Shown here one piece after another: positions 25,540-40,794 of a stretch of DNA of 41,698 nucleotides (position 1 is the first letter of the stretch; every line of letters begins with the position of its first letter). The stretch comes from a virus. The position numbers and the translations under genes are program-made. Below the pieces are notes generated by a model. It was not told the DNA's origin and did not search any database. It saw only the letters and a list, made by a program, of their open reading frames with translations. The stretch lies in UHGV virus genome UHGV-0219058. One strand, given 5' to 3'.

Positions 25540-25744
25540 ACCTCCTTAACCTCTCAACAATATGCGGATCACTCTTCCAACCACGCCCAACATAAATCAA
25601 CCTATGCCGATCGATATACTCGTCACTAAACTGGTCAAAGCATTCAAGCAATGTGTGCTTTGGTTTGAGTTGTGCTTGTCGGATGTTCTTATGCCTTAGT
25701 ATTCCTATTGATAGTTGGATGTAATAGTAATGCATATCAGTCAC
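25517..25744 (-). CDS. Hypothetical protein of 75 aa; accessory island.
   Basis: ATGA-type overlap with the upstream metallophosphoesterase gene. Confidence 0.45.
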   Translation of the reverse strand: MTDMHYYYIQLSIGILRHKNIRQAQLKPKHTLLECFDQFSDEYIDRHRLIYVGRGWKSDPHIVERLRRYGCEQRE

Positions 25745-27030
25745 CCCAACTCATAGATTACTTTCAGCTTGTCTGCTGAATACTCAAACGCCTGTGTACT
25801 CTTGTAGTTCATCGTATAACCATTCTCTGACTCGTACTGATCGTTAGGCTTAATTGTTCCAAGCTGCCGATGAATAACTCCTTTAAGGTTTTGAGCTTCC
25901 ATTGAGTGATAATGCCCTTGGTGAATCTCTAGCCAACTACTCTTGCTCCATACGTCTCGAAACTCGGTAGCGAATAGCATAGGATAATCGCCCTTCTTGC
26001 CGAAGTGTCCATGAGTGAGCATAATGCCTACATTGTCTAGCTGATATGCGATCCTTGGTAGGTTGTGTTTGTTTACCGATACCTGCGGATAGAGTGTCTC
26101 TAAGTACATTAGAAACAAATACTCAAAGTCACTATGATTACCACTGGCAAATTCAATCCGCACTTCTGAGCTTTTTCTTAATGATTCATCGATCAGAGTA
26201 ATGAAGAATGTTTTAGCCAACTCAATGGCTTCGACCATATCCACATCTTCGAGTTGGGTACCTTTGATCGTTTGGCTTGCCTTCATAGCGTTTGAGTGAA
26301 AGATATCCCCCAACACTTCTATGACGATTGTCTTATAGCCTTTATTTATGATTGCTAATACATCGGATAGATAGGTTTCAAACTTTCGTTCCGACAAAAT
26401 AGGGAAGTGCAAATCAGCCAACGGTATGACTAGATTGCACTTCCCTTTGATAATTGGTTGAATTGTAATCGGCTTAGTACTTTGCAGCAATTTAGTAGCC
26501 AACGCTTGAATGCTCACTGCTGCCCTTGGCTTAACAACTATCTTTGATTGATAAAGCTGTATAAGTCCATCTACTTGGTTGTTCTGTTCCCAGATGTTGT
26601 TCGTCGCTTGGACCAGTTCCCAGTTATCGGGATCGTATCCGTGTGCTTGTAATACATAATCAGGATTCTTTGACTGCTCTTCAGTCATACGCAGCTTGAT
26701 AAGATTTGTCTGAGTACCATCTGATTTGATTTCTGTAGATACTACATTCTTCTTAGCCTTATCTGTTCGTTTAGCACGCATATTCTTTTCGCTCGGTGGC
26801 AAACCCAACCTGGTACGTTTACTTCTAACGCTTGGCCATGAGAACTCTTTGCCGAACTCCTCCGAAAGCATAGGCGCTATCTCTATATTTGTTAGTCCTT
26901 CATTTGCCAACTCCGACAATCGTTTGACCTGCTGTTCCGTCCATTTAGTAATGTCTGCCACCTCACTTTTCTGCAAAATAAAAAGCCACTCACAATGAGT
27001 GACTAATAAACGACTGAAACGTATTAGCAT
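25741..27030 (-). CDS. Fusion of an N-terminal LuxR/sigma-r4-like HTH with a C-terminal calcineurin-like metallophosphoesterase.
   Basis: HTH: TEQQVKRLSELANEGLTNIEIAPML. Metallophosphoesterase motifs in order: LADLHFP, VLGDIFHSNAM, ASGNHSDFE, THGHFGKK, HQGHYHS. An intrinsic terminator hairpin sits inside codons about 9-16, so the real start may be the in-frame GTG at 26961. Confidence 0.6.
   Translation of the reverse strand: MLIRFSRLLVTHCEWLFILQKSEVADITKWTEQQVKRLSELANEGLTNIEIAPMLSEEFGKEFSWPSVRSKRTRLGLPPSEKNMRAKRTDKAKKNVVSTEIKSDGTQTNLIKLRMTEEQSKNPDYVLQAHGYDPDNWELVQATNNIWEQNNQVDGLIQLYQSKIVVKPRAAVSIQALATKLLQSTKPITIQPIIKGKCNLVIPLADLHFPILSERKFETYLSDVLAIINKGYKTIVIEVLGDIFHSNAMKASQTIKGTQLEDVDMVEAIELAKTFFITLIDESLRKSSEVRIEFASGNHSDFEYLFLMYLETLYPQVSVNKHNLPRIAYQLDNVGIMLTHGHFGKKGDYPMLFATEFRDVWSKSSWLEIHQGHYHSMEAQNLKGVIHRQLGTIKPNDQYESENGYTMNYKSTQAFEYSADKLKVIYELG
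26973..27004 (-). terminator. Intrinsic terminator at the 3' end of the GC-rich non-coding block (inside the annotated 5' end of the metallophosphoesterase ORF).
   Basis: Minus strand: 9-bp stem agtcactca / tgagtggct (one G-U) with loop ttg, then tttttattttg. Confidence 0.6.
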
Positions 27031-27061
27031 TGTTAAGAGGCTCTTTCAGTTTTGTTATTAC

Positions 27062-27710
27062 ACTAGTGGCAAGGATTCGAACCTTGCACGATATAAGATA
27101 GGCGTGGCTTTGACGCCTCGTTTTACTTCTACAATCATTGTCTTCTACATAGCAAGGGAGCAGCAGAATTGAACTGCCTACTTGAACTAGATAGTCACGC
27201 TTGTCTAGAATGGCGTAATTATTTCATTCAAGCCCTCCACCTTTGCGGTACTCCCTGTAACATTAATACGCCCCATGTAGTTCTCTTATATCTGATTAGC
27301 TTTACCCTTTCAGCCACACTAGCTTTTTTGAATGATAACAGTTTCAGGGATAACTGTAAACCCTATCGGTGACACAGGATTCGAACCTGTGACGTTGCCG
27401 GTTCTTCCGGTCCTCCGTACAACCATATCCACCAACTTGAGGGAGCTACCCTCTGCATGCATTTTAGGCTACTTGCACTTACCCCTTGCAATCAGGAGGC
27501 TTTTGCCTATGTCACTGGAGTGGTACTGCCCCACTCACGAACTGGTTCCTAAAACATTAGGAGCGAGAGTTTCAACACAGGTAGCTAATCTGATTATGCC
27601 AGTTCTATCTCGCCGTGCGTCTTCTACTTCCGCCACAGTGACTATCGCCCACAGAATAATTTTTACGTATCAAAAGGAGGTTGAATGCCGTTGTGCTTGT
27701 GGGCGATATC
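27062..27710 (-). ncRNA. Candidate large structured non-coding RNA of about 650 nt (ROOL/GOLLD-class hypothesis, or a novel large phage RNA).
   Basis: ORF-free on the gene strand. GC of about 55-58% against a background of about 36%. Many stable local hairpins (27439..27453, 27518..27536, 27101..27117) and a long-range 11-bp inverted repeat (27643..27653 with 27698..27708). Two tRNA-like GGTTCGAATCC T-loops in minus orientation. Followed by an intrinsic terminator. Confidence 0.5.
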
Positions 27711-27760
27711 TGATAATACTAATTTAACACGTTTTTAGTGCTTAAAATTCCGCAAATCGT

Positions 27761-28174
27761 TCATATATCAAGCATCTTGTCTAACTCTTCAAAGAATCTA
27801 TTTCGATATTCAAACGCTTTTGTTTTGCCGCACTTGATCTGAAAGCTATCAACCAACCCTTGCATCGTATATTGCGGAAATCGTTTGATATACAACTCTC
27901 GAATGATCGTCTCAGTGTCACTGCCGCACTCATCCAGAAGCTCTTGTACAATTTCCTTATTGCGTTTCAAGCGCCGGATCTGCTTATCCGTCTCGATGGT
28001 CCACAATGTACCGAACATCAAATCGCTGTCGCTTCTTGTTCCCTTGATATCCCCATTAACATCCTCTTCTCGATACGGAATTCGAATCTCTTCTTCAAGC
28101 TTTCTGACGTACTTATCCGTATCTCGGTAATCTTTCAACACTGCCTTGACTCGTTCAACACGCCATTTCTCCAA
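27761..28174 (-). CDS. arpU: ArpU-family phage late transcriptional activator.
   Basis: 137-aa protein with a pattern typical of the ArpU family (VKAVLKDYRDTDKYVRKLEEEI...). Position at the early/late boundary upstream of the packaging genes. TTG start with a strong GAGGAGG RBS. Confidence 0.65.
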   Translation of the reverse strand: MEKWRVERVKAVLKDYRDTDKYVRKLEEEIRIPYREEDVNGDIKGTRSDSDLMFGTLWTIETDKQIRRLKRNKEIVQELLDECGSDTETIIRELYIKRFPQYTMQGLVDSFQIKCGKTKAFEYRNRFFEELDKMLDI

Positions 28175-38824: not shown

Positions 38825-38878
38825 CTTCCCACTCCTCTCGATTTGTGGTAAACTTAGGTAAATATTTTTCGTAAGACT

Positions 38879-39070
38879 CTATGCTTGGCGGCCGGAGTCT
38901 TTTTTTATATCTATTAATTTTTGCGAGTAAACGGATATTCTCTTTCTAATCCTGTTCGCCTGCTTAATAATTTCCTCGTTTTGAGTGGCTCTTTCTAGTT
39001 TACGGAGCTTCGCCAATTCTTTTCTTGCGCCGTTTTTTGCATCAAGATATAAAAAATATTCTTCATTCAA
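38879..39070 (-). CDS. Hypothetical basic helical protein of 63 aa (TTG start).
   Basis: RBS GGAGGGG 6 nt before the TTG. Confidence 0.4.
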   Translation of the reverse strand: MNEEYFLYLDAKNGARKELAKLRKLERATQNEEIIKQANRIRKRISVYSQKLIDIKKDSGRQA

Positions 39071-39192
39071 ATAATTCCCCTCCGTTTCTTCATCCGTTCA
39101 ATATTCTGTTTAGCTAAAATGATTGGTTTCTCGTATCTATATCCACGATCAGCAATGATTTTGCCGATACGTAGCGCTTCAGCTCTAGTCAT
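39067..39192 (-). CDS. Micro-ORF of 41 aa (MTRAEALRIGKIIADRGYRYEKPIILAKQNIERMKKRRGII).
   Basis: Hand translation. Overlaps the downstream start. Confidence 0.3.
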   Translation of the reverse strand: MTRAEALRIGKIIADRGYRYEKPIILAKQNIERMKKRRGII

Positions 39193-39193
39193 A

Positions 39194-39331
39194 CTATTTA
39201 ACCCCCATGATCCAAATCAGCGTTAACAAAAGGACGATGTTTAAACAAATGCTTAAATATGAAATTGCTTGGAGTTGTCGTGCTTTGTAAAAGTGATTTC
39301 TATTTAGACTGGCTAACCATTTTTTATTCAT
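39194..39331 (-). CDS. Micro-ORF of 45 aa with a C-terminal TM segment (MNKKWLASL...ICLNIVLLLTLIWIMGVK).
   Basis: Strong RBS AAGGAGGAG 5 nt upstream. ATGA overlap with the upstream micro-ORF. Confidence 0.35.
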   Translation of the reverse strand: MNKKWLASLNRNHFYKARQLQAISYLSICLNIVLLLTLIWIMGVK

Positions 39332-39447
39332 GCTGACTCCTCCTTGAAGTATCGATCAATCAAAGCGAGCGCTTCTTCTTTTGTTGATACGGTATGCTGC
39401 ATTGTCGATCCGTTTGTTTCTATTGAGATAGTGATTGATTTAATCAT
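39328..39447 (-). CDS. Micro-ORF of 39 aa (MIKSITISIETNGSTMQHTVSTKEEALALIDRYFKEESA).
   Basis: Hand translation. Weak RBS GGGAG. Confidence 0.3.
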   Translation of the reverse strand: MIKSITISIETNGSTMQHTVSTKEEALALIDRYFKEESA

Positions 39448-39471
39448 TTCCCCAACTCCCTTCTATCTGCT

Positions 39472-39717
39472 TCAATAGCTATACTTGGTAACTGCCTCAA
39501 TCATTTCATCTAAAGTTTCATCAAAATATCGCATCAAATCAGAATTCATAATCAGATCGGTACAAACATTCCCATATTTTAAAGATATTTTAATGTGACC
39601 TAGATGAGGAAGAATTTCAGATTTAGCTTCTTTCTGATAGTTTTCAAGTGTAAATTCATAGTCTTTATTGTTAAATCGCCTACCCTTGACAGTCCAACAA
39701 ATTTTATCTACAATCAT
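39472..39717 (-). CDS. Hypothetical protein of 81 aa.
   Basis: ORF coupled to its neighbours. Confidence 0.45.
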   Translation of the reverse strand: MIVDKICWTVKGRRFNNKDYEFTLENYQKEAKSEILPHLGHIKISLKYGNVCTDLIMNSDLMRYFDETLDEMIEAVTKYSY

Positions 39718-40208: not shown

Positions 40209-40404
40209 ATAATTTAATATTGATAATTGGCAGATTAGAAGTGACTAATCTATATCCATCTTTAAAGTCTTTGTGTTCTTTAAATTCCCTGAGTAACTTT
40301 TGAAATAACGATTTATGGTTTTGATAACCAAAGTAGATAACCGCTTCGTCCTTAGCCATCCACGCTTGTTTTACTTCAATTGTTCTCGCCAATGTGACTT
40401 GCAT
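40162..40404 (-). CDS. Small early protein of 80 aa, possibly DNA-binding; first gene after cro.
   Basis: RBS GGAAGAGGTGA. The 17-bp operator copy at 40418..40434 lies immediately upstream. Confidence 0.45.
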   Translation of the reverse strand: MQVTLARTIEVKQAWMAKDEAVIYFGYQNHKSLFQKLLREFKEHKDFKDGYRLVTSNLPIINIKLFDEFLVWRTSNKYKR

Positions 40405-40417
40405 ATTCTCACCTCTT

Positions 40418-40434
40418 CCGTACTTAAAGTGCGG
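40418..40434. promoter_or_regulatory. 17-bp operator CCGTACTTAAAGTGCGG, distal copy.
   Basis: Near-identical (15/17) to the site CCGTACTTTTAGTGCGG in the cro promoter spacer at 40682..40698. Imperfect palindrome. Confidence 0.55.
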
Positions 40435-40449
40435 TATGCTGCAAAAAAA

Positions 40450-40647
40450 TTAAATGCGGATTAGATCTGCATCAATCTTGAACACATACGCTAAAGCAAA
40501 AACAGTAAGTGGTTTGATTGGAACTTTATTATTTTCCCAATCAGAAATAGTCTTTGATGTCACCCCTAATTTTTGCGCCAACGCTTCCTGAGTGTAACCA
40601 GCATCAATTCTGAATGATCTCACAGACATTTGTTTATCCCCCATCAT
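40450..40647 (-). CDS. cro: Cro-like XRE-family HTH regulator.
   Basis: HTH GYTQEALAQKLGVTSKTISDWENNK. Divergent from the repressor gene. RBS GGAGGTGA. Confidence 0.75.
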   Translation of the reverse strand: MMGDKQMSVRSFRIDAGYTQEALAQKLGVTSKTISDWENNKVPIKPLTVFALAYVFKIDADLIRI

Positions 40648-40675
40648 AAATCACCTCCAACTTCTCTGTGAGTTA

Positions 40676-40704
40676 AATATACCGCACTAAAAGTACGGTG
40701 TCAA
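40676..40704 (-). promoter_or_regulatory. Early lytic promoter (minus strand: TTGACA-N17-TATATT) with an operator in the spacer.
   Basis: -35 tgtcaa (plus coordinates) at 40699..40704, -10 aatata (plus) at 40676..40681. The 17-bp operator at 40682..40698 fills the spacer exactly. Confidence 0.7.
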
Positions 40705-40736
40705 CACTTAAAGTAAATTATTTTTAATAAAAGTTA

Positions 40737-40765
40737 TTTACAATACATCACTTTAAGTGTAAAAT
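40737..40765 (+). promoter_or_regulatory. Repressor (cI-like) promoter TTTACA-N17-TAAAAT overlapped by the palindrome CACTTTAAGTG at 40749..40759.
   Basis: -35 at 40737..40742 and -10 at 40760..40765. Perfect 11-bp palindrome in the spacer. A related half-site ACTTAAAGT at 40706..40714. Confidence 0.6.
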
Positions 40766-40794
40766 GAATACATAAATCGAAGGAGTTATATAGA

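Follow-up and report, generated by a model that had tools for sequence, protein, structure and literature searches.

Four tRNA-like RNA modules in the late-operon leader of the siphovirus prophage UHGV-0219058

Four tRNA-derived modules in a late-operon leader

The window analysed here is the whole 41,698-nucleotide (nt) stretch of UHGV virus genome UHGV-0219058, a siphovirus prophage with its genes on the minus strand. In this prophage, a gap of approximately 800 nt without a credible open reading frame (ORF), situated between the gene for an ArpU-type late activator and the next gene, is a late-operon leader that has been colonised by four tRNA-derived RNA modules, here called el0, el1, el2 and el3, the last of which is nested within el2. 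We hold this anatomy, and the assignment of the modules to families, with high confidence. On the whole, the block is probably best explained as a set of tRNA-like modules in a late leader which are excised as stable tRNA mimics acting in trans. It is an evenly balanced question whether el2 represents an ancient and apparently undescribed class of phage non-coding RNA (ncRNA), and whether the Enterococcus frame seen in el0 is a natural 'tRNA scaffold' with approximately 30 interchangeable cores engaged in an arms race. An initial annotation had placed a structured ncRNA with tRNA-like elements on the gene strand of this region, which was upheld; its further proposal, a single ornate RNA of approximately 650 nt, gave way to separate tRNA-shaped modules that are shuffled independently in related phages.

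On the minus strand, three canonical T-arm motifs (G-UUCRANN-C) and one analogue were found, each with a strand on its 3' side that can pair with an upstream 7-mer, and these delimit the four modules (Table 1). An anticodon loop is absent from all of them. Three hairpins picked out by the initial annotation are present at the positions it gave and belong to the modules: gagtgg-N7-ccactc is the T-arm analogue of el0, ggcgtggctttgacgcc is a conserved internal hairpin of el2, and gagggagctaccctc is the leader hairpin of el1.

Table 1. Features of the block and its flanking genes, in window coordinates
Feature	Position	Strand	Description
ArpU-type late activator gene	27761..28174	minus	PHROG 36
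Inverted-repeat hairpin	27644..27707	minus	AUCGCCCACA ... UGUGGGCGAU, 44-nt loop; directly upstream of el0
el0	27511..27642	minus	132-nt tRNA-Leu-like 'frame A' RNA with foreign 80-nt core
el0 acceptor, U8 G9		minus	GUCACUG/CAGUGAC
el0 D-arm	27633..27617	minus
el0 extended stem		minus	GCGAGA/UCUCGC, enclosing 40 nt
el0 class-II-type hairpin	27561..27548	minus
el0 T-arm analogue	27536..27518	minus	GAGUGG-GGCAGUA-CCACUC
el1 leader hairpin	27439..27453	minus	GAGGG-UAGCU-CCCUC; 3 nt upstream of el1
el1	27366..27435	minus	70-nt degenerate tRNA, acceptor UUGGUGG/UCACCGA
el1 canonical T-arm	27391..27373	minus	CACAGG-UUCGAAU-CCUGUG
Sigma-70-like promoter match	27332..27360	minus	TTTACA-17-TATCAT with upstream TG; 10/12 consensus positions
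el2	27062..27323	minus	262 nt, acceptor GCUAGUG/CACUAGU
el2 D-arm	27314..27299	minus
el2 UAAUCAG motif	27298..27292	minus	after D-arm
el2 long-range helix H1	27292..27284 with 27098..27090	minus	GAUAUAAGA/UCUUAUAUC
el2 helix H2a		minus	CUACAU/AUGUAG
el2 invariant motif	27125..27097	minus	UAAAACGAGGCGU-loop-CACGCCUAUC
el2 internal conserved hairpin	27101..27117	minus	ggcgtggctttgacgcc
el2 T-arm	27087..27069	minus	GCAAGG-UUCGAAU-CCUUGC
el3	27155..27256	minus	102-nt tRNA-like element nested in el2 in place of H3
el3 acceptor, D-arm		minus	AGGGAG/CUCCCU; CCGC-AAAG-GUGG
el3 long arm, T-arm		minus	CUAGA/UCUAG; GGCAG-UUCAAUU-CUGCU
Intrinsic terminator closing block	26975..27004	minus	9-bp stem and U-run
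First gene after block	25741..26961	minus	406-amino-acid (aa) metallophosphoesterase/'DNA repair exonuclease', PHROG 704

The el2 RNA family

In el2, an insert of approximately 190 nt replaces the anticodon arm. A search with the pattern TAAAACGAGGCGT-N6-9-CACGCCTATC, taken from the conserved internal hairpin, matched 74 IMG/VR contigs of very different composition. The 7 nt following the 3' hairpin were compared with the 7-mer expected upstream, at 22-30 nt ahead of a second conserved motif, [U/G]AAUC[A/G], and paired with it perfectly in 36 of the 53 non-redundant cases; with random 7-mers 4.2 cases are expected, and the maximum reached in 200 trials was 9. Approximately 30 different acceptor sequences occur among these cases, and the four homologues that were aligned have acceptor stems that are entirely different yet complementary.

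A covariance model, R1, was built from a seed of five low-GC members that excluded the window, and the family members were realigned by Infernal. Applied to this seed unaided, RNAalifold returned 54 base pairs (bp), 17 of them with compensatory changes, and the predicted fold consists of an acceptor stem, a D-arm, the 9-bp long-range helix H1, helix H2a, H3, H4, the invariant hairpin H5 and a T-arm. On a MAFFT alignment of 23 diverse members it returned the invariant hairpin only, because the ends of that alignment were mis-registered. R1 gave 73 matches at E<=1e-3, of which 72 extend over its whole length, and the contigs concerned range from 36 to 64% GC. The family is approximately 185 nt in size and keeps a 7-bp acceptor stem, the D-arm and the T-arm, with a four-way-junction domain in place of the anticodon arm. 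Its near-invariant core is made up of UAAUCAG, GAGA and UAAAAC-GAGGCGU...ACGCCUAUC; two motifs are invariant in 59 distinct members and are found in el2 as well, UAAUCAG, which follows the D-arm, and UAAAAC-GAGGCGU-loop-CACGCCUAUC, which precedes the 3' strand of H1. Residue A73 occurs in 32 of the 59 members, and also in el0.

Covariation statistics were obtained from an alignment of 59 distinct sequences. Paired cells amounted to 93.9%, compared with 64.9% after shuffling (none of 500 shuffles reached the observed value) and 32-42% when the partners were slid, a percentage that is inflated because the alignment was fitted to the model, whereas the positional acceptor test is independent of that fitting. 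Cells changed on both sides numbered 754, against 214 in shuffled alignments and 100-164 with slid partners. Such changes were seen in 44 of the 54 pairs, all seven acceptor pairs occur as four to six pair types, and helices 1, 3, 4, 6 and 9 each have 4-8 pairs with changes on both sides.

R1 has a single match in the window (27323..27061, minus strand; 100.5 bits, E=4.7e-29, model positions 1-190), and no non-canonical pairs were marked in the cmsearch alignment. Relative to the model, el2 has an insertion of 115 nt, which is el3, in place of the peripheral hairpin H3, and its internal helix H4 is cut to 6 nt, so that el2 departs from the family fold in these two parts. Contig L063 has the same variant together with a homologue of the nested el3, and the H3/H4 parts vary in other family members as well. 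At the H3 point, tRNAs or tRNA-like elements are also nested in L226, L265, L230, L241 and L214. Listeria phage B025 and contig L063 were at first matched by el2 as two separated pieces, corresponding to its 5' and 3' halves.

Two side observations concern the fold. The 5' strand of H2a (27280..27275 in the window) can pair with either 27150..27145 or approximately 27137..27133, the repeat being UGUAGAAG, and the same two-way option is present in several subfamilies, which hints at a conformational switch. In GC-rich members (e.g. L209, L223, L244) the D-loop and the loop of the 3' hairpin were seen by eye to covary (GCUGAU/AUCAGC, GAUGAU/AUCAUC), which suggests a kissing-loop elbow.

Members of the family are present in Listeria phage B025, in the P22-like E. 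coli phage CUS-3, in IME10 and Huey, and in Aeromonas phage 62AhydR11PP, Klebsiella phage phi1_146050 and Hafnia phage Meifeng. In CUS-3 the element follows the antiterminator gene Q and a terminator, and another terminator separates it from the holin gene; this element was found in 119 of 5426 complete E. coli genomes, with no feature annotated over it. In RefSeq the family is never annotated as RNA, and the records of Listeria B025, Klebsiella phi1_146050 and Escherichia phage Huey place protein-coding ORFs over the match. Recurrent neighbours are a late activator resembling sigma-r4, approximately 560 nt upstream, and, on the downstream side, genes for HNH endonuclease and terminase. Other members are found within tRNA arrays or have a tRNA nested at the H3 position. 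The strand of the elements is always that of the flanking genes.

In phage lambda, a unit of approximately 77 nt bounded by a 9-bp inverted repeat (GTTGTGCTG...CAGCACAAC) is situated between tR' and S (44857..44933; L280:1058-1134). Its flanks are homologous to those of the CUS-3 family RNA, whose place it takes, and its interior is different; the unit (GUUGUGCUG...CAGCACAAC) is shorter than the family RNA and is not matched by R1. An mcrA RNA motif (Rfam, 78 bits) was found approximately 100 nt 3' of the family RNA in Listeria B025 (L002:2662-2712) and in a second contig (L256:1071-1121), and a small gene comes next after the motif; in B025, the ORF annotated as gp64 covers both RNAs and may be spurious. 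A type-P5 twister ribozyme (58.5 bits; L207:11480-11534, minus strand) lies approximately 1.3 kb from an el2-family RNA.

el0 and the Enterococcus frame-A elements

el0 carries the 5' frame GUCACUG-UG-GCGGAA..ACGC and a 3' frame consisting of a 6-bp T-arm and CAGUGAC, between which the core is variable; it has no anticodon loop. Its core class also occurs in contigs L022, L054 and L057. The 5' frame (GTCACTGTGGCGGAA...ACGC) was found in more than 120 IMG/VR contigs among the matches listed and in genomes of 13 Enterococcus species, and frame A is unannotated in phages EH-TP1, EG-TP1, VEsP-1, phiFL2A/B and IME197 and in 150-kb lytic Schiekviruses. In 102 distinct frame-A elements, the region from D-arm to T-arm falls into approximately 30 classes without detectable similarity to one another, set in a near-identical frame. 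The cores span 36-152 nt, and coreless mini versions also occur. By inspection, core classes retain their helices through compensatory change (e.g. GGUCAA/UUGACC in place of GGCUGA/UCAGUC). The type of D-loop is strictly tied to the type of T-arm, giving two frame types, and el0 has the type-II frame, in which the D-loop AAGUAGAAGA accompanies the T-arm listed in Table 1.

Although model R1 includes no frame-A sequence, it aligned el0 from end to end with the core skipped in a search of the block (22.2 bits, E=4e-7), and did the same for 72 of the 102 frame-A elements (E from 5e-13 to 6e-3). Because R1 aligns these elements, and because in contig L131 frame A is joined to an el2-type core, frame A is taken to be a derivative of the el2 family.

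In Schiekvirus vB_Edu_21C1 (contig L205), a frame-A element begins 2 nt past a genuine transfer-messenger RNA (tmRNA) gene, inside a tRNA cluster. The tmRNA of this lytic 150-kb phage (L205:2151-2630 region; Rfam, 131 bits) has the tag AKNEELLAVA. Exact frame-A matches were also obtained in two contigs labelled 'Vibrio olivae' (L194, 518 bp) and 'Streptomyces sp. P17' (L198, NODE_76), where they most likely represent contaminating Enterococcus phage DNA in the assemblies.

el1 and the tRNA slot in related phages

In el1 the anticodon arm is missing or collapsed. The best score of the Rfam tRNA model (RF00005) in the block, 14.6 bits with a gathering score of 29, falls on el1 (27366..27451). 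ARAGORN with default settings called no genes, and in its relaxed and intron modes it gave weak calls for el1 and el3 only. Ahead of el1, the leader hairpin represents the conserved start of a widespread type of cassette, 'hairpin + tRNA'; the stem of this hairpin covaries (GAGGG/CCCUC, GGAGG/CCUCC, AGAAGG/CCUUCU) and its loop is kept as UAGCU or UCGCU.

For comparison, 24 related loci were fetched from IMG/VR by means of ArpU. Among them the gap from ArpU to the next gene varies from 230 to 2395 nt, and these gaps share with the window only the first 125-150 nt or so and the terminal terminator, the combinations of modules in between being different. The el1 slot is occupied in relatives by tRNA-Lys(UUU), tRNA(UUA), tRNA-Arg(ACG), tRNA-Ile or mini versions, several of them bona fide tRNAs, and the acceptor and T stems at this place differ among loci in a compensatory manner. 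Latilactobacillus phage TMW 1.1393 P1 has three tRNAs 3' of its RinA gene, and phiFL2A has a tRNA-Arg(ACG) behind a like leader hairpin. In phiEG37K, 224 nt at the slot hold none of the modules. A scan at Rfam gathering scores of the window and 48 related loci placed nothing over the elements, and found only tRNAs, one tmRNA, the mcrA RNA and a type-P5 twister nearby.

Many Enterococcus-type phage contigs have a tRNA-Lys-derived gene which ARAGORN reports as 'tRNA-Stop (tta)' (e.g. L036:3952, minus strand). These UUA genes, with the loop U-G-UUA-G-A, were seen in hairpin-led cassettes in L036, L041, L047, L061, L066 and L068; the UUA tRNA may be either ochre-suppressor-like or a variant that evades anticodon nucleases.

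Location, composition and signals of the block

The block is placed between an ArpU-type activator and late genes, a location suited to late expression, as had been proposed. The real start of the next gene is the GTG at 26961, which has a ribosome-binding site (RBS) in front of it. Its 406-aa product shows calcineurin-like metallophosphoesterase motifs by eye and a weak GcrA-like match at the N-terminus, and this gene is the usual downstream neighbour of the slot in this phage group. The block contains ORFs of 57, 67 and 131 aa, none of which matched Pfam. A protein-coding explanation was rejected, as the variation takes the form of helix covariation, the cores differ by unrelated insertions and no family is matched.

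The initial annotation had described the block as a stretch of 55-58% GC in a 36% GC genome. A recount confirmed 35 G+C among the 60 positions of 27361..27420, but the block as a whole has 43.2% GC and the window 38.9%; the richest 300 nt, at 50.7%, are the window maximum. Nor is this the only region lacking a protein-coding explanation, as further gaps without an ORF of at least 90 aa occur (e.g. 38825..39713 and 40209..40794). As for heavy structure, the minimum free energy (MFE) of the block (778 nt, unconstrained) is -229.5 kcal/mol, which is only modestly low (z = -2.4, from only 20 shuffles). The unconstrained fold does recover two closed tRNA-like domains, one formed by el0 and one by el2 with the nested el3, in agreement with the comparative analysis.

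Membership of the ROOL or GOLLD class was not borne out. Covariance models for ROOL, GOLLD, OLE, HEARO and raiA gave no match to 26900..27800 even at E<=10 with permissive filters, the sub-threshold tRNA match to el1 being the only relevant one there, and at gathering scores no Rfam 15 family is present anywhere in the window. BLAST of the whole block against sequenced phages returned fragments only, which at first suggested a unique sequence; relatives were then found with module-specific patterns. The fallback proposal of a novel RNA holds up.

The 123 positions at the start of the block are conserved in at least 20 related loci, and the stretch following ArpU probably holds the activator site and the late promoter. 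The inverted-repeat hairpin falls in this post-ArpU stretch, which is kept in nearly all relatives. A long-range inverted repeat had been reported here by the initial annotation; it is present with 10-11 bp, although the reported coordinates were one base off, the arms being 27644..27653 and 27698..27707. Inside its loop, and also within the conserved stretch, a plus-strand ORF of 17 codons (MPLCLWAISDNTNLTRF, 27675..27737) with a perfect RBS (AAAGGAGG) was read by eye, and could be chance or a small antisense gene.

At the other end, the intrinsic terminator that had been predicted to close the block was found. It ends approximately 14 nt ahead of the RBS and start of the next gene, and is approximately 95% conserved in nearly all related loci (block query positions 756-806). 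Since this conserved terminator stands ahead of the next gene, late transcription must pass through the block. The sigma-70-like promoter match sits within a conserved UAGGGUUUACAG motif 3' of el1, and a transcript from it would begin just before el2; it is a consensus match only, of a kind no commoner in the region than in shuffled sequences.

Proposed expression and function

ArpU/RinA-like activators precede the slot, and HNH and terminase genes follow it. The ArpU protein of phiFL2A binds to three repeats of 7 nt that lie just past its own gene, and these repeats are needed for ArpU-dependent activation of terS across the same intergenic region (PMC3753634). The phiFL2A intergenic sequence contains the ArpU repeats together with a frame-A element that has no core, a tRNA led by a hairpin, and a hairpin resembling a terminator.

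In the reading that we prefer, the modules would be transcribed with the late genes from an ArpU-dependent promoter just 3' of arpU, and el2 and el3 may in addition be served by a separate sigma-70-like promoter. Excision of the modules would fall to RNase P and RNase Z, or to exonucleases together with the CCA-adding enzyme, as for the genuine tRNAs in the same slot of sister phages, because the modules present the acceptor/T-arm stack and the elbow which those enzymes read. We infer that excision as stable RNAs is slightly the likelier outcome. The products would be stable, tRNA-shaped RNAs which, having no anticodon, could not decode. The least certain step is that they would act in trans as tRNA mimics on a component of the host that handles tRNA, the candidates being a defence or toxin enzyme that targets tRNA, an enzyme of tRNA processing or charging, and the ribosome; such mimicry or decoy function is a tentative suggestion, and on present grounds a rather doubtful one. 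The conserved core of el2 could then be a fixed binding module and the hypervariable cores of el0 an arms-race surface. Phages of E. coli, Listeria and Enterococcus have kept the sequence of the el2 core, which suggests either an activity intrinsic to the RNA, as a ribozyme or aptamer, or binding to a host machine that is universally conserved, such as the ribosome, RNase P or enzymes of tRNA; the frame-A cores, being hypervariable, speak for an arms race.

Several points weigh against this interpretation, in addition to the inflated pairing percentage noted above. Both el1 and el3 score poorly with every model and could be decaying copies. The existence of coreless mini versions of frame A suggests that the frame may outweigh the core, and a processing role in cis fits them equally well. 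CCA is encoded in only 3 of the 59 members. In Firmicutes members the stack of acceptor and T-stem is 13 bp (7+6) and not the canonical 12 bp, which could alter recognition by RNase P or EF-Tu, and in Proteobacterial members the sequences of the D-loop and T-loop are not tRNA-like, though mutually complementary. Clustering of the ORFs within 4 kb of motif-bearing elements gave no consistent partner gene, and therefore no clue to a partner. The promoter, cleavage by RNase P and RNase Z and action in trans are all steps that we infer.

The modules might instead be leader elements acting in cis, either as processing 'punctuation' or as a folding or antitermination device, the released RNAs having no function of their own; cleavage by RNase P and RNase Z would then part the leader from the late mRNA or set the 5' end of that mRNA. 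This is the alternative that survives best, and we consider it unlikely. It accords with a slot whose place, after the late regulator and ahead of the first late gene, is constant in Gram-positive and Gram-negative phages alike, with a conserved terminator approximately 14 nt before the next RBS, with the position of the CUS-3 element between two terminators and with the coreless mini frames; the second partner with which the 5' strand of H2a may pair hints at a switch. The t-elements of plant mitochondria provide a precedent for tRNA-like processing signals. Such a signal, however, needs only the acceptor/T-arm stack and not a 110-nt core, and the same RNAs are found inside the tRNA arrays of large lytic phages, far from late-operon leaders. 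Furthermore, the 29-nt motif is kept across contigs of 36-64% GC, from phages of E. coli to those of Listeria and Enterococcus, and phiEG37K and other relatives that lack the modules keep the same flanking genes.

That the block is a graveyard of tRNA genes broken by insertions and deletions, with no present function, is improbable as an explanation of the whole, and plausible for el1 and el3 alone. These two fail the tRNA models, intact tRNAs occupy the same slot in sister phages, and the region is a mosaic of very variable length (230 to 2395 nt). Decay would not account for the strong purifying selection on structure and on unpaired motifs in the el2 family across distant phages, nor for a frame A that is near-invariant in the more than 120 contigs among the matches listed and the 13 Enterococcus species while the cores are wholly different, nor for frame-A core classes that, by inspection, hold their helices by compensatory changes.

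The elements might also matter as DNA, as recombination boundaries or attachment sites for satellites or integrases, with the RNA folds being incidental. Cores are indeed exchanged like cassettes between constant flanks, the CUS-3 record annotates 'boundary sequences' beside the element, lambda has a unit bounded by inverted repeats at the homologous place, and tRNA genes are classic targets of integration. We nevertheless regard this explanation as very improbable, given that covariation keeps the D-arm and the T-arm, which are asymmetric and specific to tRNA, as well as G-U pairs, which are meaningful in RNA only, that the strand is always the one of the flanking genes, and that no integrase or satellite is consistently adjacent.

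To a single giant ornate ncRNA occupying the whole block, of the ROOL or GOLLD class or of a new class of that size, we attach almost no credence: the stretch lacks ORFs, is enriched in GC and is closed by a terminator, and ROOL and GOLLD are phage-associated and often near tRNAs, but none of the large-RNA models named above matched, the modules occur separately and in varying combinations in relatives, and the helices that would link el0, el1 and el2 are only weak long-range pairs of the MFE fold without comparative support.

Relation to known RNAs and significance

The family belongs with the tRNA-like phage RNAs, alongside tRNAs, tmRNA and the stable RNAs of T4. Shiga toxin (Stx) phages have the tRNA genes ileZ-argN-argO downstream of Q, and the modules resemble phage late-operon tRNA genes of this sort in slot, strand and acceptor/D/T architecture, with the real tRNAs of sister phages standing at the el1 site. 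They differ in that all four are without an anticodon stem-loop, in that neither ARAGORN by default nor the Rfam tRNA model accepts them, and in the sizes of el0 (132 nt) and el2 (262 nt). With tmRNA (SsrA) they share a tRNA-like acceptor and T-arm that close a large structured insert, but the el2 family has a true D-stem, and its insert is a four-way junction of approximately 110 nt and not a set of pseudoknots around an ORF. Neither ARAGORN nor Rfam (RF00023) called a tmRNA, and G3:U70 is absent from the acceptors GUCACUG and GCUAGUG and from the other sequences inspected. No tag reading frame was seen in the modules, with no systematic search made beyond ARAGORN.

In T4, species 1 and 2 (rnaD, rnaC) are small stable non-tRNA RNAs of the tRNA cluster. 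Like them, the el2 family is encoded among phage tRNAs, the T4 pair being matured by the tRNA-processing machinery; it differs from them in occurring chiefly in temperate phages and in having a conserved core that is defined. The t-elements also have tRNA-like folds, used there as signals for RNase P and RNase Z, but are without a conserved extra domain. YrlA, a bacterial Y RNA, has a tRNA-like domain that mimics the tRNA elbow; its ends lie in the anticodon-side stem and it is linked to an rsr gene, whereas nothing of the kind is linked to the el2 family. ROOL and GOLLD are similarly phage-borne, non-coding and tRNA-associated, yet there is no covariance-model similarity, and the block consists of separate units of far smaller size, not of a single fold. 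The engineered 'tRNA scaffold' RNAs likewise have a constant tRNA frame, which confers processing and stability, with an arbitrary structured cargo in place of the anticodon arm, as in el0; they are man-made, whereas frame A is natural and has approximately 30 classes of cargo (PMC3753655, PMC4402540).

Full-text literature searches yielded no description of the el2 family, and Rfam 15 has no model for it. A 2023 catalogue of approximately 10,000 candidate viral RNAs mentions unnamed tRNA-like candidates (PMC10690425), and the family might be among these entries.

If the family is functional, a tRNA-mimic RNA that escapes annotation pipelines is conserved among phages whose hosts differ widely. 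It is located in a much-studied place, the late-operon leader downstream of Q or ArpU/RinA, and is for that reason directly testable in CUS-3-type prophages, in Listeria B025 and in Enterococcus phages of the phiFL type. The R1 covariance model could flag such loci and prevent spurious ORF calls. The Enterococcus frame A, if the interpretation is true, would parallel in nature the engineered tRNA scaffold, and may constitute a new type of hypervariable phage locus, made of RNA instead of protein.

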